IMG/VR virus record: IMGVR_UViG_3300031673_006185
Direction: 5' to 3' (one strand)
DNA: 38,673 bases
DNA from: a virus
Shown here piece after piece: positions 1,725 through 38,673 of this stretch. Numbering within the stretch: position 1 is the first letter of the stretch; every line of letters starts with the position of its first letter. The notes beneath the pieces were generated by a model that saw nothing but the letters and a program-made list of their open reading frames with translations, searched no databases and was not told the origin of the DNA. The position numbers and the translations under genes are program-made.

Positions 1725-2158
1725 GAACCTTTATATTAGCATTGATGGTAGGAATTATTGGATGCGGAGGTGAACCTGTTGTGGATGATCAAGAAGAAGA
1801 TGTATCCATTCAGAAAGAACCTGCTGCGAATGAAGAGAGTTGTGGAAACAATGTATGTGAAAGAAACAAAGGAGAAGATTATTGGAACTGTCTTGACTGT
1901 GTAGATTTGTTAACTGGTGGGCCAACAAACGGCTATTGTGGAGACGGTGTGTGCTTTAATGAAACTATGTTTGATTGTTGGACAGATTGTAGACCACACG
2001 CTTCTAATCCCGCAGCATTTGATGACGATGTTCCGCAGCCTGGAAAAAACATAAGAATACTAATTGATCAAGGGCCTTGGCCCGGCATCGAGCCGATACC
2101 AAACCCAGGGCCACTTCCAGGACCTCCAAAGAAAGAGGTTGAGGATAGGAGATGGTAA
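1721..2158 (+). CDS. Cys-rich lipoprotein with a Pro-rich C-terminus
   Basis: Signal peptide plus lipobox (MRTFILALMVGIIGC). It has about 12 Cys in CxxxC-type spacings, then PGPLPGPPKKE. It overlaps the upstream gene by 4 nt (ATGA) and the MVP gene by 7 nt. Confidence 0.55.
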   Translation: MRTFILALMVGIIGCGGEPVVDDQEEDVSIQKEPAANEESCGNNVCERNKGEDYWNCLDCVDLLTGGPTNGYCGDGVCFNETMFDCWTDCRPHASNPAAFDDDVPQPGKNIRILIDQGPWPGIEPIPNPGPLPGPPKKEVEDRRW

Positions 2159-4707
2159 AAATTAATTTTAGTCCACCGCCAGAAAATGTAGGAACAGTCA
2201 ATGAGCGGTGGGAAACAAACAATCAACAAGAAAAAGAGGAGAGTAAAATGGCTGAACGTTCAGAGAGAGAGTTGGTGCTTGCCCCAAATGAGTATGCTTT
2301 TATTCTTGACACCACCAAGGGTAATGTAAATTGCTATGTTGGTCCTAATAAGACCAGTCTCGCTGGTACTGATAGTATGGTAGCTTTTAATGAGAAGACT
2401 AAAAGATTCGAGCCTGTTGCGTTAGATCGTGCCGTCCAAACGTTTAAGACTGCTCCAAGCAACTGGTATATGATTATGAAGAATCCTGCTAAGGATTCTG
2501 CTCATCCGCAGCCTGGTCCGTCTAATAGTCTTCCGCCTCTCCAGGTTGGTAAGAAGGTTAACATCCATGGCCCATCGTCTTTTGCTCTTTGGCCTGGTCA
2601 GATGGTAAAGGTTATTGAAGGTCATAAACTTCAATCAAATCAGTATCTTCTGGTTAGAATCTATGATCATGAAGAGGCCAACAAGAATATTGAAGGTATC
2701 TATGGTGGTAAGGTTCCAGAGGATGTAACTGATCTTTTCGCTGGCCAGAAAGTAATTATCAAGGGCACCGATGTTTCTTTTTATATGCCCCCAACTGGTG
2801 CGGAAGTTATGCCCGATGATAATGGTGATCTTGTACGCAACGCAGTTACTCTGGAACGTCTTGAGTATTGTGTGCTGGTTGGTGAGAATGGTGAGAAGGA
2901 ATATCGTCGTGGTGAGGATGTAGTCTTCCCGAGGCCGGATCAGAAGTTTTTGACAAGCAATAGTTCGAGGAAGTTCCGTGCTATCGAGTTGGATGAAACG
3001 ACTGGTCTTCATGTAAAGGTGATCGCTCCTTATGTGGATGAAGAGAGTGAGCGACGAGAGGGTGAAGAGCTGTTTATTACTGGCAAAAACAAGCTGTATT
3101 TTCCGAGAAAAGAACACGCTATTATCCGTGATGAGGGTGGTAATCAGCTTCACCACGCGGTTGCTGTTCCTAAGGGCGAAGGTTTGTATGTTCTGAATAA
3201 GCAGTCTGGTGATGTAAAAACTATTACTGGTCCCAAGATGTTTCTTCCCGATCCCAGAACTGAGGCGGTAACGCAGAGGATTCTTAGTGATCGTGAGTGT
3301 TCTCTCCTTTATCCGGGGAACAAAGAGGCTTTGGATTTTAACCAGCAATTGCGTGGTGCTATTGAAGTAACTGTTGCCACCAACTCTGCTGAGGCTATGT
3401 CTAAGGTTCTTAGTAATCGTCAGAGACGTGGTCCTACCAAGGGCGGGGCCGAGGTTGCTGCGGAAGCTCTGGCAGAGATGGCGTCCAGTGATTGGGCTGG
3501 CGACGGGTTTACTCGTGCTGGGTATGATGCTAAGCCCAGAAGCATTACCATTGATAACAAGTATCGTGGTACTGTTGCCTGTGATATTTGGTCTGGATTC
3601 GCTGTTCAGATTATTGATAAGGCTGGTAACAGGCGTGTGGTGGAAGGCCCGATCAATGGCGTGCTCATGGAGTATGACGAGACTGTTGAAGCCCTACATC
3701 TTTCTATGGGCAACCCCAAGTCTACCGATAAGATGTTGGCTACAGCGTTTTTGAAGACCAGAAATAACTATGTGTCTGATACCGTTGGAATTATTTCCAG
3801 GGATCTTATTATGGCACAGGTTAAGATTAAATATCTTGTTGATTTTGTTGGAGAAGACAAGGGCATGTGGTTTGCGGTTGACAACTATGTCAAGCTGCTT
3901 TGTGATCATGCTCGATCTAAAATCAAGGCTGTTGCTCGTAAGACTTCGATCAGTGATCTTCAGAAGAATATTTCTGAAGTTATTCGTGATACTGTTTTGG
4001 GTGCGAAGCCAGATGCAGGCATTCGTTCTGGTCTGGTATTTGAAGAGAACAGCATGGTTGTAAGAGATGTTGATGTGCTGTATTTTGAGATCACTCAAAA
4101 AGAAGTTAAGGATCTGATGTTTAGCAGTCAGATCGGTGTTGTGCGAGACAACATTGTGTTGGAACAAAAAGAGTCAGAGTTGGCCAATCAAAAGAGGCTT
4201 GAGGAGATTAGTCGGGCACTGGAGCAAGAGCGCCATATGACTGAGGAACTTCGAAGGCAACTGCGGTTGAAGAGTGAAGAGGGAGAGGCTGCTTATCGGT
4301 CCTCTGTTTTGACATTTGAGGATTCTTTAAGGGACCAGAGGGAAGCTTCTGATATGGCTACAGCTCAGCACGAGATGTTGCTTCAGGAGAAGCGTCGGCA
4401 GGATAAGCAGAAAGAGCATGAGCTTGATCTGAAGCGTAAGGCTGATCTTCAGGAACTTAACATTACCTATCTGAAGGAGAAGGTTGATGGGGCTGTTAAG
4501 CAGGCTACTGCGTTCTCGCCGCACATTGTTGAGGCTGTGAAGAGACTGGGCGATGCTCAGTTGCTGTCTTCTCTGGCCGAGAATTTTGGTGAACTTGCTG
4601 CTATCGAGGGTAAGGGTTTGTTGGCGGTAGCGAATAAGTTCTTAGACTTCAAGCATACGGGGGCTATGATTCCGATGCTGAAGGAACAATTTGAGTCGGG
4701 TGAGTAA
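2152..4707 (+). CDS. major vault protein (MVP) homolog
   Basis: 851 aa. N-terminal tandem ~55-aa repeats carry MVP-repeat hallmarks: PNEYAFILD...VGPNKTSL, FALWPGQMV, KGTDVSFYMP, comparable to human MVP PPYHYIHVLD...VGPKTYI, FPLYPGEVL, EGPGTYIP. A shoulder-like region follows (VSDTVGIISRD...). A ~150-aa coiled coil follows (ELANQKRLEEISRALEQERH...), like the MVP cap helix. The C-terminus GDAQLLSSLAENFG resembles MVP GPEMQVKLLQSLG. Confidence 0.65.
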   Translation: MVKINFSPPPENVGTVNERWETNNQQEKEESKMAERSERELVLAPNEYAFILDTTKGNVNCYVGPNKTSLAGTDSMVAFNEKTKRFEPVALDRAVQTFKTAPSNWYMIMKNPAKDSAHPQPGPSNSLPPLQVGKKVNIHGPSSFALWPGQMVKVIEGHKLQSNQYLLVRIYDHEEANKNIEGIYGGKVPEDVTDLFAGQKVIIKGTDVSFYMPPTGAEVMPDDNGDLVRNAVTLERLEYCVLVGENGEKEYRRGEDVVFPRPDQKFLTSNSSRKFRAIELDETTGLHVKVIAPYVDEESERREGEELFITGKNKLYFPRKEHAIIRDEGGNQLHHAVAVPKGEGLYVLNKQSGDVKTITGPKMFLPDPRTEAVTQRILSDRECSLLYPGNKEALDFNQQLRGAIEVTVATNSAEAMSKVLSNRQRRGPTKGGAEVAAEALAEMASSDWAGDGFTRAGYDAKPRSITIDNKYRGTVACDIWSGFAVQIIDKAGNRRVVEGPINGVLMEYDETVEALHLSMGNPKSTDKMLATAFLKTRNNYVSDTVGIISRDLIMAQVKIKYLVDFVGEDKGMWFAVDNYVKLLCDHARSKIKAVARKTSISDLQKNISEVIRDTVLGAKPDAGIRSGLVFEENSMVVRDVDVLYFEITQKEVKDLMFSSQIGVVRDNIVLEQKESELANQKRLEEISRALEQERHMTEELRRQLRLKSEEGEAAYRSSVLTFEDSLRDQREASDMATAQHEMLLQEKRRQDKQKEHELDLKRKADLQELNITYLKEKVDGAVKQATAFSPHIVEAVKRLGDAQLLSSLAENFGELAAIEGKGLLAVANKFLDFKHTGAMIPMLKEQFESGE

Positions 4708-5856: not shown

Positions 5857-6498
5857 ATGTTTCTTCCTTTAATTGAAAAATGTGAATCTGCTGGTTCTAA
5901 TAAGAAGACGACTATAATTAAGAAAAACTTAGAAGAAATGTTTGAAGAGAGACGATCAACACTAATGATTCTTCCATCAATAAGCAGACAAGTCTTGAGC
6001 ATGGCACAGTCTTTGCCAGGCTGTTTGTTGGCTGGTGGAGCAGCTCTTGAGTTATACACTGGTGATATTAATAAGATAAAGGATTGGGATCTGTTTTTTG
6101 CTCGGTCTGAAGGTTATAAAGAAGCCCAACATAAGTTGAAAGGGCTTGGTTTTGTGGGAACAGATCGCTCTGAATGGAGCTGGACTATGGAAAAATCTGG
6201 TGTGGTGGTTCAACTTATAACCAGATTTTATACATCGTCACCCGCCGATTTGTTTAATCGCTTTGATTTTTCTGTTTGTTGCTTTGCTGTTAAAGGACCA
6301 GACATTTATTATACAGAGCAGGCTGCGGAAGATGTTGAACTCAAGAGGCTGACTTATATTTATACGGATAATATTATCAGTAGCATTAAAAGAGTTGCAA
6401 GATATGGTCATAAGGGCTACATGCCTACAACGCAGTGTGTTATAGATTTATTGAAGCAATGCAAGTTTATTCCAGAAGACGGGCCGGGTTGTAGTTAG
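5857..6498 (+). CDS. putative Pol-beta-superfamily nucleotidyltransferase
   Basis: LAGGAALELYTGDINKIKDWDLFF fits hG[GS]-x9-13-DhDh; RBS GGAGAG. The fold assignment is tentative. Confidence 0.4.
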   Translation: MFLPLIEKCESAGSNKKTTIIKKNLEEMFEERRSTLMILPSISRQVLSMAQSLPGCLLAGGAALELYTGDINKIKDWDLFFARSEGYKEAQHKLKGLGFVGTDRSEWSWTMEKSGVVVQLITRFYTSSPADLFNRFDFSVCCFAVKGPDIYYTEQAAEDVELKRLTYIYTDNIISSIKRVARYGHKGYMPTTQCVIDLLKQCKFIPEDGPGCS

Positions 6499-6508
6499 GG
6501 ATATCATT

Positions 6509-7123
6509 ATGAATCAACGACAAATTAAAGCAATACGCAAAAATCCTGATGACGTAAATTGGATATTACTATGCGAAGAGGAAAAATTATCCGAGGATTT
6601 TATAACAGAGTTTAAAGATAAAGTGGTTTGGGATCGCATTTCAAAATATCAGAAATTATCTGAAGATTTTATAGACAAGTGTCAAGACAGAGTTGATTGG
6701 TATTATATTTCAGTATATCAAAAACTTTCGGAAGAGTTTATTGAGAGCTTTAGTCATCTTGTAGACTGGGATCAGATCAGCTTCTACCAACAACTTTCAG
6801 AACGGTTTATGATTAAGCATTGCGATAAACTTGAGTGGGAAAATATATCTGAATCTCAAATATTATCTGAAGATTTCATAGCAACATTTCACGATAAACT
6901 TGAGTGGGATGCGATTTCCCGAAATCAAATACTATCTGAGGATTTTATGTCGGCGTTTAAGGATAAATTAAGTTGGCCGATGATATCTCGTGCTCAAATA
7001 TTGTCTGAGGATTTTATAGCAGAGTTTCGAGATATGGTTGATTGGTGGTATATTAAATCAAGACAAAAGTACTCGCAAGAATTTGTACAACACTTTAAAA
7101 CTGAATTAGAAAGGGCGCGATAA
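6509..7123 (+). CDS. repeat protein with six or more ~22-aa 'W-x-IS-x-YQKLSEDFI-x-F-x-DKVDW' repeats
   Basis: The period is visible in the translation (ISKYQKLSEDFIDKCQDRVDW / ISVYQKLSEEFIESFSHLVDW / ISESQILSEDFIATFHDKLEW ...). Paralogs start at 25773 and 38288. Confidence 0.6.
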   Translation: MNQRQIKAIRKNPDDVNWILLCEEEKLSEDFITEFKDKVVWDRISKYQKLSEDFIDKCQDRVDWYYISVYQKLSEEFIESFSHLVDWDQISFYQQLSERFMIKHCDKLEWENISESQILSEDFIATFHDKLEWDAISRNQILSEDFMSAFKDKLSWPMISRAQILSEDFIAEFRDMVDWWYIKSRQKYSQEFVQHFKTELERAR

Positions 7124-7125
7124 TA

Positions 7126-8256
7126 ATGTGGTCTTTTACTGGTTTTGGGGCGAGATTAGATCTGTCCAAAGTGCGATCTGATTTCCGGCAGGTTTCGGAT
7201 AGCGGATTAACTTTTATATGTCCCAGAAAAAATATGTGGGATTGGAGTTTCGAAGAGAGATTCCTGCGTTCAATTATCGTTGATCAGGATGGCTATGTAG
7301 TATCATCAGGTTGGCCAAAGTTTGGAAACTATGGCGAATTTTTGGATGATACTGAAACGCTTAAAAAAGATCTTGAAGATGGTGCGCCTGTAAGATTTAG
7401 CCACAAAGAAGACGGATCTCTGTGTATTCGATCAGTTATAAATGGCCAGGTAATTCTTCGTACTCGTGGAACCTTATATGGTGGCGAGCGTGGAGAAGAT
7501 GGAATGGAATCTTATAAGGAAAGATTTTTTCGAACTGCCCAGAAGTATCCGAAAATATTAGATTCTAACTGGATGACAGACCGATCTCTTTTATTCGAGT
7601 ATGTAGCACCAGGCAATTTAGTTGTAATACGATACAAGGAAGAAGACTTGGTGTTCCTTGGGTATGTAGATCATTCTTTACATATCGGGCACTGGTCTGA
7701 GGTGGAAGCTGTGGCGAAAGAGGGCCAGTTAAATCTTGTACGTCTGCACGATCTGCCACGAGATCCGTTGGAACTCTTGGAAATTATAAAGACTTGGAAA
7801 GATGAAGGTGTGGTTGCCAGATGTGATCAAGATCAGGTAATGGTCAAAGTAAAAAGCGCCCATTACCTGGCCCAACACAGGATGAAGTTCTCCATAAATT
7901 ATAGATTTATGGTAGAGTTTGCGGAACTATCTGGTATTAATAGTGAAGCAGACTTAATAAAAGAACTACAGGCTTGTGATTATGATTATGAGATTATAGA
8001 AACTACCCTTCCGTTTTATCATAGATACAAAAGAGCGTCTGTTTCTGTTGATAATACGATACATGAAGCTCATGAGGTAATCAATAACTTTTCGTCTGAT
8101 AAAACCGATGAGGTTGGAAGGAGAAAAGAACTTGCTATGTTGATAAGCAAACTACATGGACATATCAAGCCATTTGTGTTTGCTCTTTATGATAAGAAGA
8201 TGAGCAGAGTGGACGCTCTTAGACGAAAAACAATTCTAACCGAGGGTAAAAGATGA
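7126..8256 (+). CDS. ATP-dependent RNA ligase (T4 Rnl1-like)
   Basis: Motif I FSHKEDGSL (KxDG, the Rnl1-type KEDGSL), motif IV EGVVAR, motif V MVKVKSAHY; 376 aa. Confidence 0.65.
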   Translation: MWSFTGFGARLDLSKVRSDFRQVSDSGLTFICPRKNMWDWSFEERFLRSIIVDQDGYVVSSGWPKFGNYGEFLDDTETLKKDLEDGAPVRFSHKEDGSLCIRSVINGQVILRTRGTLYGGERGEDGMESYKERFFRTAQKYPKILDSNWMTDRSLLFEYVAPGNLVVIRYKEEDLVFLGYVDHSLHIGHWSEVEAVAKEGQLNLVRLHDLPRDPLELLEIIKTWKDEGVVARCDQDQVMVKVKSAHYLAQHRMKFSINYRFMVEFAELSGINSEADLIKELQACDYDYEIIETTLPFYHRYKRASVSVDNTIHEAHEVINNFSSDKTDEVGRRKELAMLISKLHGHIKPFVFALYDKKMSRVDALRRKTILTEGKR

Positions 8257-24740: not shown

Positions 24741-25761
24741 CAGTAAACTTACTCTTATTTTTGGAGTTATATTGGTGGCTCTTTTAATTGGGGCGGGAGT
24801 GGTTGGGTATTTCGCGTATAAATCTTTAACAGAAGATAATGCCAGATTAACTAATGAGGTGGTTCAGTTTAAGAAGTTAACGGAAGACTTGGTTAGAAGC
24901 AGTACTAAGTGGGCAACAAAACAGGACTTGGAAAACGATCTTAAAACCCTTATGACAAAAGAGGATTTGGCTACACTTCAGGCGGACCTGGACAAACTTG
25001 GATCGAAGCTTACGGCTGTTGGTAAAACTGTTGGCGAGGTTAAGCGTAAGGTGGCTTTGTTGGAGGCCAGTGATAGAGAGGGAACTGAGACCACTCCTCC
25101 TGCGGTTTGTAGAGAGACAGGAGATCCTATTGATGTTCATGGATATACTAAGAAGGTACAAATCAAAGAACTCAAGGACTCTAACGCGGCTCCAATCGCA
25201 AAGGCAGAGTTTGATGCCTCGAAAGAAAAGCCTTGGAATTATGAGGTTTATGGTAGGGAATATAGACTTACGACCGTTGTTGGTGAAAAAGACAGTGGTC
25301 AACTGACGTTCCACCATCAACTTAAGTATGCGGTTCCTTCTCAGGATCCAGAAAAGCAATATCCTGTGAGTATTATATCGTCAGATTATAGTCAGGTTCC
25401 TTTAAGTAGCAAATGGTTTTGGCTTAATCCACGCATAGATGCTAATTTTATAGTTGGTGGAATGGTATATAAGTTTGCTACTGGGCCTGGGCGGCCTGAT
25501 AATATATTATCTATGGGTGCTGATGTTGGCATATCCTTGTCATCTTATGGCGAGACAAAGGTAGATAGTTGGTTTAGATTGTTTAGATTTGGTTTAGGGT
25601 ATAATGTAGAGAGGCAAGCAGGCTCTTTTTCATTCGCTCCATTTGCTTTTAATGTGGGCAAGCCATTACCATTATTGACCAATTTATATCTCACTACGCA
25701 AGTTGCAATTGATACAGGTGGCGGAATTACAGTGAATCTTGGGATTGGGCCTCAATTTTAA
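24706..25761 (+). CDS. membrane-anchored coiled-coil protein with a beta-rich C-terminal domain ending in Phe (outer-membrane-protein-like)
   Basis: N-terminal TM or signal anchor (LTLIFGVILVALLIGAGVVGYFAY), then ~100 aa of heptad-like sequence, then alternating hydrophobic strands and a C-terminal ...GIGPQF. Confidence 0.45.
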   Translation: MSEQQIVVTSGNSKLTLIFGVILVALLIGAGVVGYFAYKSLTEDNARLTNEVVQFKKLTEDLVRSSTKWATKQDLENDLKTLMTKEDLATLQADLDKLGSKLTAVGKTVGEVKRKVALLEASDREGTETTPPAVCRETGDPIDVHGYTKKVQIKELKDSNAAPIAKAEFDASKEKPWNYEVYGREYRLTTVVGEKDSGQLTFHHQLKYAVPSQDPEKQYPVSIISSDYSQVPLSSKWFWLNPRIDANFIVGGMVYKFATGPGRPDNILSMGADVGISLSSYGETKVDSWFRLFRFGLGYNVERQAGSFSFAPFAFNVGKPLPLLTNLYLTTQVAIDTGGGITVNLGIGPQF

Positions 25762-25772
25762 TGAGGGCGGTT

Positions 25773-25901
25773 ATGAGAAAACTTACTATAAAACAAATAG
25801 CAGAGATAAGAAAATATCCTGGTTCTGTGAATTGGAATTATCTATCAAGATATCAAAAACACTATCCACTTAAGGAGCATTATAAATGGAAACACGATTA
25901 A
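25773..25901 (+). CDS. short ORF (42 aa) with the N-terminal module of the YQKLSEDFI-repeat family; a truncated paralog
   Basis: MRKLTIKQIAEIRKYPGSVNWNYLSRYQK matches MKKLTKKQLKDIRENPDNQKWDYISTYQK (38288) and MNQRQIKAIRKNPDDVNW (6509); RBS GAGGG. Confidence 0.4.
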   Translation: MRKLTIKQIAEIRKYPGSVNWNYLSRYQKHYPLKEHYKWKHD

Positions 25902-26071
25902 AAAGGCTTGACACTGGAACTTTTATTAAAGTAAATGATAAAACATATAGGTTATATATGGTGAGATTAATTTGGCCCGATGGTAAAAGTAAAGATTTTC
26001 AAAGTGAAGAGCACGCAAATGCCTTTCTTGAGCGTCGAGCCCCTAATTTTGTTGCGTTTGAAACACCATAA
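25886..26071 (+). CDS. hypothetical small protein (61 aa)
   Basis: Strong RBS TAAGGAG. Confidence 0.4.
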   Translation: METRLKRLDTGTFIKVNDKTYRLYMVRLIWPDGKSKDFQSEEHANAFLERRAPNFVAFETP

Positions 26072-28873: not shown

Positions 28874-29302
28874 ATGACAAAGCCTTGTGTTAATGGAAAA
28901 AACATAAAGATTTCAAGGGTTTTTTCTAGAATAGTAAGGCGACTTCCTTCTACTTACCCTAAAGCATTACTTGTAATACACCCAAGTCTTAGGAAATTAG
29001 AATCATACTTTTGGGAAACAGGTGGTACTGCCCTTGATCCAGGTGATCCAGGACACCCTCCGTTTGCTTATTGTGATGGAGAAGACAACTCCATTCATGT
29101 TGCGTCTATATTAAACAAAGATTCTGCGCGTCAAATCTCATGGTATTTATTACATGAAATAGGACACCTACAAGCACTTCGAAGGTACGGCGACGATGAT
29201 TCTCGTTGGGATGATTATCGAACTGCCGAGCGCTATGCGAACAGGTTCGCTAATAGATGGTGCAATAAACTAAAGGAGGAAGGTTTTTTCAAAACAATAT
29301 GA
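28874..29302 (+). CDS. putative small zinc metallopeptidase (HExxH)
   Basis: WYLLHEIGHLQALRRYGDDD; ATG at 28874 with GGAGG at -8. The longer ORF from 28661 runs through the terminator and is rejected. Confidence 0.4.
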   Translation: MTKPCVNGKNIKISRVFSRIVRRLPSTYPKALLVIHPSLRKLESYFWETGGTALDPGDPGHPPFAYCDGEDNSIHVASILNKDSARQISWYLLHEIGHLQALRRYGDDDSRWDDYRTAERYANRFANRWCNKLKEEGFFKTI

Positions 29303-29970
29303 AAACATTGAACAAAATTGGACTTTGCCTTTTGATGTGTATGACACTAAGTTGTGCTACAGTTCAAAAAGAAGGGTCGGTCAAACCAGAAATTCATAAT
29401 ATTTATCAGTCTAGTGTGACGGTGACGGACGATGGTGGCAGAACGGTTGGTAGTGGTACAATAATCCACAATGGAATTAATCAGTATATGTTTGTACTCA
29501 CTGCTGCCCATGTTGTAGAAGCCTTGCTTGAGAAAGATAAAGTTCCATGTGTTACAACTGCTTTTGATTCTAAAATTTATGCTATGAAGGTCTATAAGAT
29601 TGATGCCCAACGCGATCTTGCTATTCTATCCAGTATAAATAAAATGGAAAGGGTAGGGCCATCTACTAGAGTTTCTTTATATGGCCCAAATATCGGAGAT
29701 GATGTTTGGGTAATTGGTGCTCCGCTAGGTGACGAGAGAACGGTTACGAATGGTATAATAAGTAACTTCAAGGTTATGGATGGAAAAAAACTATATAGAA
29801 CAACCGCTCCGACTTTCTATGGAAACTCTGGTGGTGGAATGTTTAATCGCGATGGCAACCTTATTGGTGTTGCACATGGGATTTTGCGGGTTCAAATGGG
29901 ATTCTCAATTACACATGTGCCAGGCGGTTATTTTTTTGTAGGTTTAGAATCTATAAGAGAATTTATGTAA
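29299..29970 (+). CDS. secreted trypsin-like (S1 family) serine protease
   Basis: Signal peptide (LCLLMCMTLSCA), with the catalytic-triad contexts TAAHVV (His), DLAIL (Asp) and GNSGGGMF (Ser). Confidence 0.7.
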   Translation: MKTLNKIGLCLLMCMTLSCATVQKEGSVKPEIHNIYQSSVTVTDDGGRTVGSGTIIHNGINQYMFVLTAAHVVEALLEKDKVPCVTTAFDSKIYAMKVYKIDAQRDLAILSSINKMERVGPSTRVSLYGPNIGDDVWVIGAPLGDERTVTNGIISNFKVMDGKKLYRTTAPTFYGNSGGGMFNRDGNLIGVAHGILRVQMGFSITHVPGGYFFVGLESIREFM

Positions 29971-29995
29971 ACATCTACAGTTTAGATTTTTAAAA

Positions 29996-30025
29996 TAAGG
30001 CTCTTTACGGGGCCTTATTTTTTAT
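29996..30025 (+). terminator. probable intrinsic terminator
   Basis: TAAGGC...GCCTTA short stem, followed by TTTTTTATT. Confidence 0.4.
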
Positions 30026-30073
30026 TACTAGACATTTAATAATAGTAGGTTTATATTAAGAACGAGGTAGAAA

Positions 30074-30295
30074 ATGTCGAAAGTGTTTTGTAATAGGTGT
30101 AAATATTATAAAGATCTTTGGGATTGGGGTATGGCACCACAATGTGTTAGTCCCAATAACGTAGTAAAATGTGATACTTATTTTCGGTCATCAGCAAAAA
30201 CAACATATCTTCTAGCATTAGCAGAAAAAAATGCTCACAATAATTGTTTATCATATGAGCCCAAATGGTGGGTTAAATTGTTTTGTCGAAAATAA
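30074..30295 (+). CDS. small Cys-rich protein (73 aa)
   Basis: RBS GAGGT; CNRCKYYKD...CVSPNNVVKCD. Confidence 0.4.
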   Translation: MSKVFCNRCKYYKDLWDWGMAPQCVSPNNVVKCDTYFRSSAKTTYLLALAEKNAHNNCLSYEPKWWVKLFCRK

Positions 30296-30341
30296 ATGTC
30301 GATTTTTTCTGAAACTAAAGACTTAAGAAATAGTGAATAAA

Positions 30342-32458
<2,117 letters not shown>

Positions 32459-32481
32459 TAACAATTAAACATAAATAATGT

Positions 32482-32512
32482 GCCCAGTTATCTTATCGAT
32501 AGCTGGGCATCT
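32482..32512 (+). terminator. terminator-like hairpin abutting the next start codon (possible attenuator)
   Basis: GCCCAGTTATC...GATAGCTGGGC forms an 11-bp stem with one mismatch, followed by ATCTTTA. Confidence 0.35.
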
Positions 32513-32514
32513 TT

Positions 32515-33534
32515 ATGGAGAGACACATGGAAGAAAGACAGCAACTTGTTAATCTACTGTTGACGAGCTTTGGAGTTGATTTATATCCAAAATCTGATGG
32601 GCGAATAGAAATTCCAAAGTATATGATTACTACTGCGGGCTGGGACTCTTATGATAAGGTCTATATGTCCAGTGACTTACAGGGAAATCTTTATATTTCT
32701 TCAGATTCAACGTCCTTTTCTGGAGGCGTGACGATATCTGTAGCAGTTTCCCATGGAAGACTTCGGATACCCGTAGGATTTTTGAAGCGAATTGGAATAC
32801 ATAATAGAAATCTGGTTGCTGTATATGATATGAACTCCACACTTCATCTAAGACCAGATAATTCTGAATCTGAAGAAGCTTTGGTGGAGTTTGTCAATGA
32901 GCTTAATGAAAAAGATGCTATTTTGCTAGCAAACATCTTGATGGGACGAGCTGTACTTGACAACTATATTCCGAATATGGAAATTGTTAGGGTATCTGTC
33001 AACCAAAAGCCTCTTCCAGAAGCCGAGATGTTTTTATTGGAAGCTAACGAACAGCGTTCTTTTATGTTTCGTCCAATTGGGAATCCATATAAATTCAAAT
33101 GTTGTTGGGTAGATAAGGTTCCACATTTAGCTTATGAGAATAACGACAATGCGACTATGTTATATGTAATTCCTGGTATTAAACGAATCAAGAAAAACGA
33201 TGGTGGAACCGTGCCAGGGTTTCTTATAATAGATGAAACAACTTTTGGAAAGATTTGTTATGTCGTAAAGAAAAAAGGCGACGACACGGCTATTGGCAAG
33301 GATCTTATTTTTATGTTTAGTCCGAGAGTTAGAATTGGATCATTCAAGGTATTTGAAAATCCCAAGGAAGATTTAGATCCAAAGATTATAGAAGAGGCTA
33401 AGCAAGTATGTGCCAATCCAGAAAGATTTCTTTCAAGTAATTTTAGTTTGTTCAAATCTGGTAATTGTGATCTTCCACCGACCACAATTACGGTTAACAC
33501 AATAGGTAAAATAAACAAAAGGGAGCAAGCGTAA
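32515..33534 (+). CDS. hypothetical protein (339 aa) with a possible AbrB/MazE-like swapped-hairpin segment
   Basis: SHGRLRIPVGFLKRIGIHNRNLVAVYD resembles AbrB GRVVIPIELRRTLGIAEKDALEIY. Confidence 0.4.
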   Translation: MERHMEERQQLVNLLLTSFGVDLYPKSDGRIEIPKYMITTAGWDSYDKVYMSSDLQGNLYISSDSTSFSGGVTISVAVSHGRLRIPVGFLKRIGIHNRNLVAVYDMNSTLHLRPDNSESEEALVEFVNELNEKDAILLANILMGRAVLDNYIPNMEIVRVSVNQKPLPEAEMFLLEANEQRSFMFRPIGNPYKFKCCWVDKVPHLAYENNDNATMLYVIPGIKRIKKNDGGTVPGFLIIDETTFGKICYVVKKKGDDTAIGKDLIFMFSPRVRIGSFKVFENPKEDLDPKIIEEAKQVCANPERFLSSNFSLFKSGNCDLPPTTITVNTIGKINKREQA

Positions 33535-33537
33535 AAA

Positions 33538-34059
33538 ATGCAAGACGAAAAGCAGACAAGAATTAACAAGAATATCAAAGCTAAAACAGTGCTATTAATT
33601 GATGAAGAGGGTAATAATATTGGTCATGTTAACTTTTTAAAAGCACTTGCTATGGCAACGGATTCTGGATTAGATTTGGTAGAAGTTAGTTCTGGCAAAG
33701 ATGTGCCTGTTTGCAGGATAATGGACTATGGCAGGTGGCGTTATGAGCAGTCAAAACGCACTAAGAAAAATAAAAACCAGAATAAGACTCAAGGAAACAA
33801 GGAGATAAAGTTTCGTCCCAATACTGGAGAAAACGATTTGATTTATAGGGCGAAGCAGTTAGATGGTTTTATTAAAGAGGGATATAGAGTAAAACTATGT
33901 GTGCGGTTTAGGGGAAGAGAAATTGAGCACATGTATAATACCGGCAGAGATTTATTGGAACGATTTCTTAGTTTCATTACTGTTGGTTATAAAATGATTG
34001 GTACTGCTGTTGTAGAAGGTAAGACCATCTCTCAATGGTTAGGTCCGGAAAATGAGTAA
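33538..34059 (+). CDS. infC: translation initiation factor IF-3
   Basis: VCRIMDYGRWRYEQSKRTKK, EIKFRP, CVRFRGREIEHM; collinear with IF3 N- and C-domains; RBS GGGAG. Confidence 0.88.
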   Translation: MQDEKQTRINKNIKAKTVLLIDEEGNNIGHVNFLKALAMATDSGLDLVEVSSGKDVPVCRIMDYGRWRYEQSKRTKKNKNQNKTQGNKEIKFRPNTGENDLIYRAKQLDGFIKEGYRVKLCVRFRGREIEHMYNTGRDLLERFLSFITVGYKMIGTAVVEGKTISQWLGPENE

Positions 34060-34570
34060 AATAGTTACTGATTTGGAAATACTTAGAGCATCTAATGGCA
34101 CTGTTTCTTTACAAGAATCTAAACAGATCATTAACGATCTTGACATTGCTCTACAAAACTCTACCATGTCTGGACTTGGTTTGGCCGCTCCTCAAATTGG
34201 AATTAACAAACGGGTAGCCATTGTAAGAGCTTATGGTGAACTTATTAATCTTGTGAACCCAGTTATTATTGAAAAAGAAGATGGTTTTATAAATACTAAT
34301 GAGGGATGTTTGAGTATCCCTGGAACATTTGTAAATACTCAAAGATATAAAGAGATTTTTATAAAGGATGATCTACATCCCGATGGTGTAGTTGCTGTTG
34401 GCGATGTGGCTGTAGTGATGCAGCACGAAATAGATCACTTAGATGGGATACTTATGATTGATCGCGCTATTGGAAAGGGAAAGATTGGGCGCAATGAGAA
34501 GTGTCCATGCGGTAAAGTAGTAAATGGTAAGCCAGTGAAATATAAAAAATGCCACGGCAAAAACTATTAA
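34052..34570 (+). CDS. def: peptide deformylase with a C-terminal SEC-C-type zinc motif
   Basis: PDF motifs GLGLAAPQIG, EGCLSIPG and QHEIDHLDG; C-terminal tail NEKCPCGKVVNGKPVKYKKCHG (the SecA-C-terminal / YchJ-like CPCG...KKC motif). Confidence 0.85.
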   Translation: MSKIVTDLEILRASNGTVSLQESKQIINDLDIALQNSTMSGLGLAAPQIGINKRVAIVRAYGELINLVNPVIIEKEDGFINTNEGCLSIPGTFVNTQRYKEIFIKDDLHPDGVVAVGDVAVVMQHEIDHLDGILMIDRAIGKGKIGRNEKCPCGKVVNGKPVKYKKCHGKNY

Positions 34571-35531: not shown

Positions 35532-35642
35532 TATCTCTCCTCATATAAATAGCTAATTTCTTTAGCAAAAAATATAGTTTCTTTCTACTAATATAAAAGT
35601 AAATAGTCTGTGTACTAATGTTTCTTTTGGAGGATGTTCATA

Positions 35643-35936
35643 ATGGAGTCTCGTTCTGTTGGTCATACCAAGCTTATGAAGTTTTGGGCAGAGTGGTGCG
35701 CGCCCTGTAGATTTATGTCGCCAGTAGTAGAAGGTGTTTTGGAAGATAGTTTATACTCAGATGTTGAACTTATTAGTGTTAATATAGATGATGAAATCGG
35801 CCAAGAAGCCGCCAAGGAATTTAGTATTCGTAGTATTCCTACTCTTGTTCTTTTAAACGATAAAGATCAAGTGGTGAGTACGTTAATTGGAACTGCGAGT
35901 GCTGATCAATTGCGAGAATTTCTCTCAAAAAGATAA
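35643..35936 (+). CDS. trxA: thioredoxin (variant CAPC active site)
   Basis: FWAEWCAPCR at the canonical position, then IRSIPTLVL (cis-Pro region); ATG at 35643, 9 nt after GGAGG. Confidence 0.75.
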   Translation: MESRSVGHTKLMKFWAEWCAPCRFMSPVVEGVLEDSLYSDVELISVNIDDEIGQEAAKEFSIRSIPTLVLLNDKDQVVSTLIGTASADQLREFLSKR

Positions 35937-35948
35937 CTGGAGAATAAA

Positions 35949-36881
35949 ATGTCAAAATATAAGATCCCTATTGCGGACTCATTGGTCGTAGGCCATGTAG
36001 ATCCTGATGGGGATTCATTGTCTTCCATAAAAGCTGTTATTAACTTTTTAAGGAAGAATGGGAAAACAGCTTATGCGAAAGTACAAGGCCGAGTCCCTGA
36101 GCATCTTTCATGGATCGTTCCTGAAAGTGATAGGGTTGATGATATTCCAGAAGTGGAACAAATCATAGTGTTGGACTGTGCCCCAACCACTGGACGTATA
36201 GGTTTTGATGTTTTACTACCATGTATCAATATAGATCACCATATAACTCGTAAGGATGAGCACTCTCCTAAAAATAAAGTCTATGTTTTGGATAGGTGTT
36301 CAACTGCTGCGGCTCTTATATTAGACTTTGGTATTATTGATGATATTTTATTGGTTGGTTTATATACAGATACGTTTTTTGTTCGCTCTTTAAATGAGGT
36401 ATTTCAAGCGTTTAGTAAATTGGAAATTGAAGATGATACCGCTACGGAGATATTATCTGCCATAAAACCTCATAGATATATGCAGGCATTACTGAGCATT
36501 CAAGATGCAAAGATTCACAAATGCCGCAATGGATTCATGATTGTAGAAGTTGAGGAAACAGATCAGGCTGTAGTATCTGAAATCATGGATACATTGTTTA
36601 AGTATTCAGAAAATGTAGTATTAATAGATGGTTTGACTAAGGCAAGGTTAAGAACATCCAACAAACAACTGATAGAGTCCGGCAAAATAGCTGAAATTGC
36701 TAACATTTTTTCTGGAGGTGGACACGCATTTGCTGCTGGGTGCGATGTAAGTGGAAAAAGAACGGCCTTTCTTGGTGTAATTAAACAACTAAAGGTTCCA
36801 GAGTCTCGAATATCTATTGAGGCTGATGGATATGAGGAAAAGCATGAAAAGCAAGAAAAGCATGAAAAACTTACTAAGTAG
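35949..36881 (+). CDS. nrnA: DHH/DHHA1 phosphoesterase (NrnA-like nanoRNase / pAp phosphatase)
   Basis: DHH motifs HVDPDGDS, LDCAP, NIDHHI, plus DHHA1 GGGHAFAAG; C-terminal EKHEKQEKHEK repeat tail. Confidence 0.7.
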   Translation: MSKYKIPIADSLVVGHVDPDGDSLSSIKAVINFLRKNGKTAYAKVQGRVPEHLSWIVPESDRVDDIPEVEQIIVLDCAPTTGRIGFDVLLPCINIDHHITRKDEHSPKNKVYVLDRCSTAAALILDFGIIDDILLVGLYTDTFFVRSLNEVFQAFSKLEIEDDTATEILSAIKPHRYMQALLSIQDAKIHKCRNGFMIVEVEETDQAVVSEIMDTLFKYSENVVLIDGLTKARLRTSNKQLIESGKIAEIANIFSGGGHAFAAGCDVSGKRTAFLGVIKQLKVPESRISIEADGYEEKHEKQEKHEKLTK

Positions 36882-37518
36882 TATTAAAGAAACAGTTAGT
36901 GTTCCATTAAAGTTTCATTGGTCTGTTTTGTTACTACCAGCTCTTTTAATATTTTATAACGGAGCGTTTGGTATTGTCCTGTTTGCGATGTTGTTTAGCT
37001 CTCTTTTATTCCATGAATATGCTCATGTGTGGATGGCACAGCGACAGAAGTTGTATGTGCCATATGTAATTACTCATGGATTTGGTGCGGCAGCTATGAT
37101 TAGTATGACTGATTTTACTGATTATAAGAAGAATCTAAAAATTGCGATAGCTGGGCCGATAGGATCCTTTATTTTACTTGGCATAGGGTCTGTTTTGTAT
37201 AGTATTTTTCATTTTACCTGGATAATATATTTTGTATACATTAACTTTTTACTTGGAACGTTTAACCTTTTGCCGCTTTTTCCTTCAGATGGTGGCAGGA
37301 TTTTATATTCGTTACTTGGAATGAAGCTTGGTGGGTTCAAGGCTATTAAAATCGCCGTATGGGTCTCGTGGGCACTTTGTGGACTTGGTATACTATATGG
37401 CCTTCTGGCAGGCTCCTGGTGGCTTGTGATCGTTCTGGGGCTACTTATAGTGATGAGTATACAAGAAAAGAAGACAACTGAAGCACGGCTTAATGGCTTC
37501 GAGATTGAATATAAATAA
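36862..37518 (+). CDS. site-2 protease family (M50) intramembrane metalloprotease
   Basis: HEYAH in a TM helix plus NLLPLFPSDGGR (the LDG motif). The start is uncertain (ATG at 36826, 36832, 36844 or 36862); it overlaps the nrnA tail. Confidence 0.7.
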   Translation: MKNLLSSIKETVSVPLKFHWSVLLLPALLIFYNGAFGIVLFAMLFSSLLFHEYAHVWMAQRQKLYVPYVITHGFGAAAMISMTDFTDYKKNLKIAIAGPIGSFILLGIGSVLYSIFHFTWIIYFVYINFLLGTFNLLPLFPSDGGRILYSLLGMKLGGFKAIKIAVWVSWALCGLGILYGLLAGSWWLVIVLGLLIVMSIQEKKTTEARLNGFEIEYK

Positions 37519-37619: not shown

Positions 37620-37919
37620 ATGAACGAAGAGTTTTCTTGTCCGCTGTGTAATAGAAAAATTGAAATACTTACTGATCATCATATTGTTCCTAAAAGCAGA
37701 GGCGGATCAGAACTGATAAGTATATGTAAAGATTGTCATAAACAAGTACACGCTCTATTTGATAACAAAACTCTTGAAGAAAGCCTAAATACCGTCGAAA
37801 CATTATTAGCCAATGAGCAATTTAGTAAGTATATTAAATGGGTTATTAATCGTCCGTCGGGAATCGTACACAAGGCAAAGAGATCAAAAGAAACTAAAAA
37901 GCGTGGAAGACGGGGATAA
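37620..37919 (+). CDS. small HNH endonuclease
   Basis: CPLCNRK...DHHIVPKSRGG...ICKDCHKQVH; RBS AGGAG. Confidence 0.6.
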   Translation: MNEEFSCPLCNRKIEILTDHHIVPKSRGGSELISICKDCHKQVHALFDNKTLEESLNTVETLLANEQFSKYIKWVINRPSGIVHKAKRSKETKKRGRRG

Positions 37920-38105
37920 CCTGCCAATAAATTGATATTATTATATATCACGTTTAACGGAGGTTTCCATGGATTTTGTATATGGCTTAATTATTGGCTG
38001 TGTTGGCGGCCCTCTGGCATGGGAAATACTTAAAGTAGTATACTACAAACTAAAGCATAAATCAACTATAAGATAGAAAATTTCTATAACATTTTTTTAA
38101 AACAG

Positions 38106-38133
38106 AGAAGCGCTTTGCGCTTCTTTTTTTTTT
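38106..38133 (+). terminator. rho-independent terminator
   Basis: AGAAGCGC-TTTG-GCGCTTCT followed by T10. Confidence 0.7.
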
Positions 38134-38287
38134 GATAGGAAGAAATATGTTTAATTGTATGTGGATTGTATTTGGCGGATCGACAGAATGTCCGATAATT
38201 ATTAAGTTTATTACCAATAAATGCGAGCTAATGTCTTTCCAACTCAAAGAAAATGAGTGGGTGGAAGAGTTTGAGATCGATACACAT

Positions 38288-38673
38288 TATGAAAAAACTT
38301 ACTAAAAAACAATTGAAAGATATAAGAGAAAATCCTGATAACCAAAAATGGGATTATATTTCAACATATCAAAAACTTTCTGAGGATTTCATAGCAGAGT
38401 TCCAAGATAAAGTTGATTGGATTTATATTTCAGCATATCAAAAGTTATCTCAAGATTTCATCGCAGAGTTCCAAAATAAGGTTGATTGGATTTATATTTC
38501 AAAACATCAAAAACTTTCTGAGGATTTCATAGCAGAGTTCCAAGATAAGGTTGATTGGCTTTATATTTCAACATATCAAAAACTTTCTGAGGATTTCATA
38601 GCAGAGTTCCAAAATAAGGTTGATTGGATTTATATTTCAAAACATCAAAAACTTTCTGAGGATTTCATAGCAG
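38288..38673 (+). CDS. YQKLSEDFI-repeat family protein (5' part; continues beyond the window)
   Basis: MKKLTKKQLKDIRENPDNQKWDYISTYQKLSEDFIAEFQDKVDW, then near-identical 22-aa repeats; open to the window end. Confidence 0.6.
38340..38673 (+). repeat. 66-bp tandem DNA repeat (five or more copies, >85% identical) inside the repeat-protein gene
   Basis: TATTTCAACATATCAAAAACTTTCTGAGGATTTCATAGCAGAGTTCCAAGATAAGGTTGATTGG recurs with only a few substitutions per copy. Confidence 0.8.

Follow-up and report, generated by a model that had tools for sequence, protein, structure and literature searches.

A 38,673-nt stretch of viral DNA, IMG/VR record IMGVR_UViG_3300031673_006185 (analyzed as a whole and referred to below as the window), carries three paralogous loci, two genes and one decayed remnant, whose products are members of the tryptophan repeat gene family, an already named viral family first named in entomopoxviruses. 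The two genes encode arrays of 23-residue tandem units that are predicted to stack into an α-solenoid. In one of them, designated copy 3, comparison with near-identical genomes supports recent in-frame gain and loss of whole units. With moderate confidence, we regard the proteins as small, acidic, presumably cytoplasmic α-solenoids that would act as a customizable protein-binding or adaptor module in infection.

Three paralogous repeat loci

A two-unit hidden Markov model (HMM) derived from homologues was run against all six reading frames of the window and matched at three loci only:

6509–7123, plus strand: copy 1, a complete gene of 204 amino acids with an ATG start, recognized as an open reading frame (ORF), by its tryptophan spacing, and by matches or models from PHROG 3532, AlphaFold2 and Foldseek.
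25773–25901, plus strand: copy 2, a truncated remnant of 42 amino acids (46 from an alternative ATG at 25761), an ORF with a unit HMM match at E = 2.9e-6.
38289–38673, plus strand: copy 3, the 5′ part of a gene that leaves the window at its end, with an ATG start and a repeat array from 38349.

A preliminary description of this DNA had proposed a repeat ORF at the first locus and a short ORF with the same N-terminal module at the second. Both are present: the former starts with ATG and consists of tandem units, and the latter also holds half a unit. The paralogy that it proposed for the loci is borne out by the unit HMM matches and by the DNA of copies 2 and 3. In an ungapped comparison, 66 of the first 87 nt of copy 2 (76%) are the same as in the beginning of copy 3, about nine standard deviations over background (24.5 ± 4.4 matches, calculated on both strands of the window; the next best placement gave 51).

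Copy 1 is composed of an N-terminal cap helix (residues 1–17) and eight 23-residue units (W18 to residue 201; nt 6560–7111), with tryptophans at residues 18, 41, 64, 87, 110, 133, 156 and 179, spaced by exactly 23. Its units are diverged, with pairwise DNA identities of 41–70%, and Tandem Repeats Finder detects the 69-bp period in two stretches of the gene. The protein is acidic (isoelectric point 4.8, net charge about −13).

In copy 3, a 20-residue N-terminal cap is followed by four full units and one partial unit of 49 nt, with tryptophans at residues 21, 44, 67, 90 and 113. Tandem Repeats Finder assigned period 69, 4.6 copies, 89% matches and a score of 535 to positions 38354–38673. Pairwise DNA identity between these units is 82–100%, and the synonymous codons of units 1, 3, 4 and 5 are the same, a sign of recent duplication or gene conversion. 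The units differ at positions 2, 6, 7, 12 and 20, most of which are variable in the family as a whole too.

The tryptophan spacing and the period of 69 revise several details of the preliminary description, which had given the unit as 22 residues (66 bp) instead of 23 residues (69 bp) and had written its beginning as W-x-IS, one residue short of the true pattern W-x-x-I-S. It had also placed the start of copy 3 at 38288, in the wrong frame; the ATG is at 38289. It was right that near-identical repeats run off the end of the window there, and its count of five or more has to be replaced by the four full units and the partial one.

Copy 2 retains the N-terminal cap and, from the first unit, helix A (WNYLSRYQK). 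It encodes MRKLTIKQIAEIRKYPGSVNWNYLSRYQK, followed by unrelated residues, and the AAGGAG ribosome-binding site of the following ORF (25886–26071) falls in its tail. A GAGGG motif lies 5–6 nt before the ATG at 25773. The shared N-terminal module appears to be half a unit in degenerate form, helix B with its loop, and to cap the solenoid, as judged from its sequence and from a helix at residues 3–11 of the model described below.

Predicted structure of the repeat array

The structure of copy 1 was predicted with AlphaFold2 from an alignment of 79 sequences, with a mean predicted local distance difference test score (pLDDT) of 97.8 and a predicted template modeling (TM) score of 0.88. In the model, each unit contributes a 7-residue helix (W-x-x-I-S-x-Y) and a 6-residue helix (E-D-F-I-x-E), and the units are stacked as a continuous α-solenoid, in agreement with the helical solenoid anticipated in the preliminary description. 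The elements of one unit are helix A, the turn Q-K-L-S, helix B (E-D-F-I-x-E-F) and the loop x-D-K-V-D.

Conserved and variable positions were distinguished by position entropies calculated from 651 units of 120 homologues. Values under 0.7 bits were obtained for positions 1 (W), 4 (I), 5 (S), 8 (Q), 10 (L), 11 (S), 12 (E), 14 (F) and 15 (I), and values over 3.5 bits for positions 2, 3 and 6. Positions 7, 13, 19 and 23 are intermediate, and F18 and V22 are somewhat less conserved than the near-invariant set. In the model, the near-invariant residues W1, I4, S5, Q8, L10, S11, E12, F14 and I15 would build the solenoid core. Because the conserved residues at the start of the unit (positions 1, 4, 5 and 8) follow the helical spacing i, i+3, i+4, i+7, and positions 2, 3 and 6 are variable, the two sets lie on opposite faces of helix A, and the variable residues of successive units should line one predicted exposed ridge.

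Two or three variable residues per unit could also serve a base-reading code, as in modular nucleic-acid binders such as PPR, PUF and TALE proteins, with each unit reading one base. We consider such a role for the arrays quite improbable.

Relationship to the tryptophan repeat gene family

The preliminary description had not recognized the repeat as a named family. A Foldseek search of copy 1 against predicted viral structures nevertheless identified MSV027, annotated as "tryptophan repeat gene family protein" (E = 4.5e-21, TM score 0.91, 42% identity over 195 columns). Further matches include MSV205, MSV029 and AMV029, members from the Mythimna, Adoxophyes and Choristoneura entomopoxviruses (four other entomopoxviruses in all), gp558, gp560, gp562 and gp563 of Bacillus phage G, and proteins of pithoviruses, marseilleviruses, Orpheovirus, Megaviridae and an iridovirus.

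The tandem units of copies 1 and 3, 23 residues long with one conserved tryptophan each, fit this family, whose original motif, described by Afonso et al. in 1999, reportedly spans about 23 residues. The window also holds three loci within 38.7 kb, as is appropriate for a multigene family. Our comparison with the family rests on database names and on structure and sequence matches. As in the entomopoxvirus family, there is one invariant tryptophan per unit and there are several copies per viral genome. The window members differ in that they are short, consist of the array only and come from a phage of bacteria, whereas the entomopoxvirus family member AMV254 carries an F-box (PMC7728225). In a 2025 re-annotation of phage G, gp556 and gp560 are likewise listed under "tryptophan repeat gene family", with function unknown (PMC12484599).

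Profile searches gave strong matches to PHROG 3532 for copy 1 (E = 1e-60, 206 bits) and for the partial copy 3 (E = 6e-48). This cluster and the others matched, 11920 and 22019, are unannotated, so they add no functional information. A tblastn search of cultured phages located the repeat at 36 places in Listeria phage LPJP1, 27 in Bacillus phage G, 38 in BpSp and 8 in Clostridium phage c-st; it occurs many times per genome in jumbo phages of Firmicutes, and matches are weaker in jumbo phages of enterobacteria. LPJP1 has at least ten paralogs in tandem, and tandem paralogs are also found in two of the contigs examined (L009 and L022). At the protein level, a word-indexed search returned 1,435 hits, and an exhaustive HMMER search returned 6,874 representatives of 50% identity clusters at E ≤ 1e-3, 3,215 of them at E ≤ 1e-10.

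The literature notes further homologues in an iridovirus and in baculoviruses (the ac30 homologue "trgf"), and in ant genomes as endogenous viral elements (PMC6540820). We also observed a protein with seven or more units and 56% identity to copy 1 on a 137-Mb scaffold of the spider Argiope bruennichi (HNY73_019622, P0024 in our set). This protein could be an endogenous viral element, recalling those in ants, or a contamination.

Searches against other resources gave no competing assignment. A Pfam scan of the window proteins produced only sub-threshold, scattered and unrelated matches at E up to 10, and homologues behaved alike; none of the named Pfam repeats considered (LRR, Sel1, MORN, Ank, TPR, HEAT, Arm, LRV, pentapeptide and Myb) exceeded its gathering score. 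The NCBIfam scan of the window proteins gave nothing real, PADLOC defense profiles matched neither copy 1 nor the full-length homologue P0004, and a sequence search of solved structures yielded chance OspA matches only. Literature searches for the motif strings and for DUF7666, a domain found in some relatives (see below), returned nothing relevant. The outcome that the preliminary description had named as fatal to its view, a well-known family of known function with an invariant copy number, is not what we found.

Two candidate assignments were considered and rejected. DUF1699 (PF08004) is a precomputed label on many homologues that we were unable to reproduce (E up to 10 for the window proteins and up to 0.1 for P0001, P0005 and P0006); the precomputed labels are probably faint summed-repeat hits. 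A Myb-type helix-turn-helix was considered for the regularly spaced tryptophans, an expansion of Myb having been reported for phage G; no Myb model of Pfam was matched, however, and the predicted structure is an unbroken solenoid with two helices per unit.

Unit-number variation at copy 3

For comparison with copy 3, contigs from other samples were obtained by exact look-ups of neighboring proteins. Their flanks are 99.0–100% identical to the window, and 99.9–100% identical in the case of L003 and L004, both of which contain complete alleles. The L003 allele encodes 115 amino acids in four units, A-B-C-T, where T is a distinct terminal unit, and the L004 allele encodes 138 amino acids in five units, A′-D-E-C-T. 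The window allele reads A-B-C-D-(C or E) and then continues, for at least five units. A relative that is ~93% identical upstream, L025, has a complete allele of 182 amino acids with a stop codon and seven more diverged units. All three complete alleles are in frame, and each change in length amounts to a whole unit. L004 matches the window throughout the 2,289 nt that precede the gene (100% identity), but its very first unit differs at three bases.

Recent in-frame unit gain and loss in copy 3 is supported by these differences, which include four and five units in contigs with near-identical flanks. The recent expansion or contraction that the preliminary description had read from the near-identical repeats finds support as well. 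A seven-unit master allele, A-B-C-D-E-C-T, with a predicted product of 184 amino acids, combined with in-register deletions would account for the window, L003 and L004. The suggestion of a contingency locus does not fit in the strict on/off sense, because the length of the unit, 69 bp, is divisible by three, and the units are part of the coding sequence and leave the complete alleles in frame; what results is variation in length and surface rather than phase variation. An exact-sequence cluster look-up of the copy 3 alleles found them absent from that collection.

An alternative explanation is that the variation arose in assembly, the near-identical 69-bp units having been collapsed or broken, and that all strains share one array length. 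The contigs were assembled from short reads (k141); the window, L006, L007 and L008 break off within the copy 3 array, and L005 ends just before it. The A-B-C-T order of L003 is, moreover, the product expected from collapsing a longer A-B-C-D-E-C-T. Other features argue against an artefact. Unit A′ of L004 is an A/C hybrid with ~11 nt shared at the junction, which should be below typical assembly k-mers and too short for a de Bruijn collapse, so that the k-mers of this unit should occur in the reads. Unit B, with synonymous codons of its own, is present in the window and L003 and missing from L004. The three-base difference in the first unit of L004 adjoins identical upstream sequence, and L025 provides a complete seven-unit allele. 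(A further contig, L024, is the same JGI contig as L004 and adds no independent support.) On balance, an assembly origin for the variation as a whole is unlikely, if still a serious contender, and, even should some of the unit counts be in error, the copy 3 array is a hotspot of change.

Contig ends within tryptophan-repeat genes are not confined to copy 3. Many independent contigs end in this way (the window, L006, L007 and L008, together with L013, L017 and L018 of IMG/VR), and one viral contig of 203 kb has tryptophan-repeat genes at both ends. Repeat genes of this family thus seem often to be responsible for broken assemblies in metagenomes of large phages.

Domain fusions in relatives

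The full-length homologues reside in phage-like contigs of 166–353 kb, sometimes as tandem paralogs. The best metagenomic homologues are mostly ~300 amino acids long and consist of the array followed by a conserved C-terminal domain of ~100 residues. This domain resembles ADP-ribosyltransferase (ART), with scores that are weak but consistent. In isolation it has no Pfam match, not even to DUF7666, and a catalytic triad of the ART fold (H-Y-E or R-S-E motif), sought in the domain, was not found. We therefore treat the ADP-ribosyltransferase-like assignment as a lead only. Most metagenomic phage homologues have this domain, whereas the window members lack it.

Other fusions were also seen. DUF7666 is joined to the array in P0056 and P0120, and P0265 combines an array with a MORN-like tail. 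P0268 (221 amino acids, from an NCBI source) has an N-terminal RING-H2 finger followed by five units; it would form a ready E3 ligase in which the repeat binds the substrate, and its source is presumably a virus that infects eukaryotes. A Pfam scan of nine long members (up to 1,428 amino acids) showed essentially repeat throughout and no informative fusions.

These architectures invite an analogy with the ankyrin-repeat/F-box host-range proteins of chordopoxviruses, which are likewise multi-copy, fast-evolving solenoid arrays of large viral genomes. Poxvirus arrays of the ANK/PRANC type are sometimes fused to ubiquitin-ligase modules (F-box, RING) and are presumed substrate adaptors; the tryptophan repeat arrays may be comparable. 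Because the window proteins have no effector domain, the evidence from fusions bears on their role indirectly.

Genomic context

The sizeable ORFs of the window are all on the plus strand and closely packed. GC content is ~0.39, and the GC skew is uniformly and strongly positive (0.16–0.24) over all 38.7 kb, in agreement with a single coding orientation. No tRNA genes were found in a search of the window. The features that surround the repeat loci or help to place the genome are as follows:

2152–4707, plus strand: major-vault-protein-like protein of 851 amino acids (PF11978 shoulder domain, E = 1e-17; vault repeat match weak).
5857–6498, plus strand: Gad2-like nucleotidyltransferase of 213 amino acids, directly upstream of copy 1 (precomputed Pfam match to PF26128, Gad2, an anti-Gabija nucleotidyltransferase family; nucleotidyltransferase-like in PHROGs).
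7126–8256, plus strand: T4 Rnl1-type RNA ligase, directly downstream of copy 1.
8253–11968, 15739–16434, 29299–34570 and 35634–37518, plus strand: cell-like housekeeping genes.
37620–37919, plus strand: HNH endonuclease gene, ~370 bp upstream of copy 3.
38104–38126, plus strand: strong intrinsic-terminator-like hairpin with a 10-bp stem and then a T run, just 5′ of the next feature.
38132–38305, plus strand: small ORF that overlaps the start of copy 3 by 17 nt.

The housekeeping set includes an AAA ATPase, a full-length Lon protease, a Prok-E2_D domain protein, a trypsin-like protease and a KTI12/AAA_33 kinase, as well as Cpn60, IF3, peptide deformylase, thioredoxin, a DHH phosphoesterase and an M50 protease. 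An RlaP-type nucleotidyltransferase, an ATP-dependent DNA ligase and PurA are also encoded. The vault-like protein has no PHROG match; a major vault protein domain is unusual for a phage. Given the hairpin, copy 3 may be the start of a new transcription unit.

Bacterial-type translation genes together with Shine-Dalgarno motifs indicate that the genome is that of a phage, probably a large one; we take it to be a tailed phage, and the housekeeping genes suggest the jumbo type. The sole IMG/VR relative found through Rnl1 is a contig of 316 kb. A megablast search with 25 kb of the window against cultured phages gave no match, so there is no close cultured relative at the DNA level, and the Lon-like protein has only distant matches among phages, which did not help in placing this one.

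Possible function of the arrays

What has been observed or computed is the paralogy and family identity of the loci, their predicted fold, which positions are conserved and which vary, how alleles differ and which domains are fused in relatives; beyond these, we infer that the arrays would bind a target, that the target would belong to the host and that binding would serve infection. We suggest that the array is a stoichiometric binding or adaptor module that would catch a host (or possibly phage) macromolecule during infection, with the variable ridge and the unit number determining its specificity. In relatives, the array may be the targeting part for an attached effector domain, and the array-only proteins of the window would then have binding as their sole means of action, by sequestering, inhibiting or bridging. 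Recombination between the 69-bp DNA units would add or remove units in frame and could make copy 3 a fast-evolving gene in an otherwise stable genome. The Gad2-like nucleotidyltransferase and the Rnl1 RNA ligase beside copy 1 belong to classes used in phage counter-defense, and, given these neighbors, a role in counter-defense or host takeover is plausible. The host-range role, in receptor binding, that the preliminary description had raised finds no counterpart in the data: no tail or fiber genes lie nearby, and the proteins are small and acidic, with no Pfam domain of a secretion or receptor-binding type.

Several observations weigh against the adaptor interpretation. An HMM of the C-terminal domain of the relatives found no match in the six-frame translation of the window or in related loci; neither the window proteins nor the near-identical contigs have any of the effector domains of their relatives. 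The Gad2 label is precomputed, and our own Pfam scan gave no match, the model possibly being absent from the copy that we used. The 316-kb relative has no repeat gene beside Rnl1, and the neighborhood evidence is weak. The window is one of several contigs that stop within the copy 3 array, as is typical of assembly trouble, and some unit-number differences may be artefacts. Finally, no member of the family is known to have been studied experimentally or to have an established binding partner.

The proteins might instead be packaged in the virion, as structural or ejected internal-head proteins of a jumbo phage, rather than being intracellular adaptors. Jumbo phages package many non-structural proteins, as reported for phage G, and copy 3 weakly matches phrog_8111, "internal virion protein" (E = 5e-6). 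That match, however, spans about one and a half units and is far weaker than the one to PHROG 3532. There is no capsid, tail or portal gene near any copy, the neighbors being nucleotidyltransferase, RNA ligase, AAA/Lon, HNH and PurA genes, and tryptophan-repeat proteins are not among the particle proteins named in the available text of the phage G proteome paper. We rate packaging as improbable.

A very improbable explanation is that these are selfish or decaying repeat ORFs without a function for the phage, spread by duplication and recombination, possibly together with the HNH gene that lies just upstream of copy 3. The truncation of copy 2 and a position that is not kept in a distant relative are in line with such a history. 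It is difficult to reconcile with a conservation of core residues above 90% in thousands of proteins, whose sources range from phages to poxviruses, with a very confident fold prediction, and with reading frames that are intact in all complete alleles and change in length by whole units. We thus rate the selfish-ORF, virion, nucleic-acid and assembly-artefact explanations all below the readings favored here, a protein-binding module and unit gain and loss in copy 3.

A more far-reaching version of the adaptor interpretation is speculative and, in our estimate, doubtful. It holds that the arrays are a programmable protein-capture scaffold common to jumbo phages and giant eukaryotic viruses, retargeted to host defense proteins by unit gain, unit loss and gene conversion. 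Phage arrays would then often deliver a hitherto unrecognized ADP-ribosyltransferase-like effector (compare the anti-CRISPR protein AcrF11), and array-only forms would be stoichiometric inhibitors.

The window genes are ordinary new members of a known, uncharacterized family. That family is very large, expanded in jumbo phages and common to poxviruses, iridoviruses, baculoviruses and giant viruses, and it is without a Pfam model or a solved structure. To it the window contributes a fold model of high confidence, a map that separates structural from variable positions and an example of natural unit gain and loss between near-identical genomes, and the ADP-ribosyltransferase-like, RING and F-box fusions in relatives offer testable leads to function. 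If the arrays do prove to be a programmable scaffold, the family would constitute a large unexplored class of anti-defense proteins.
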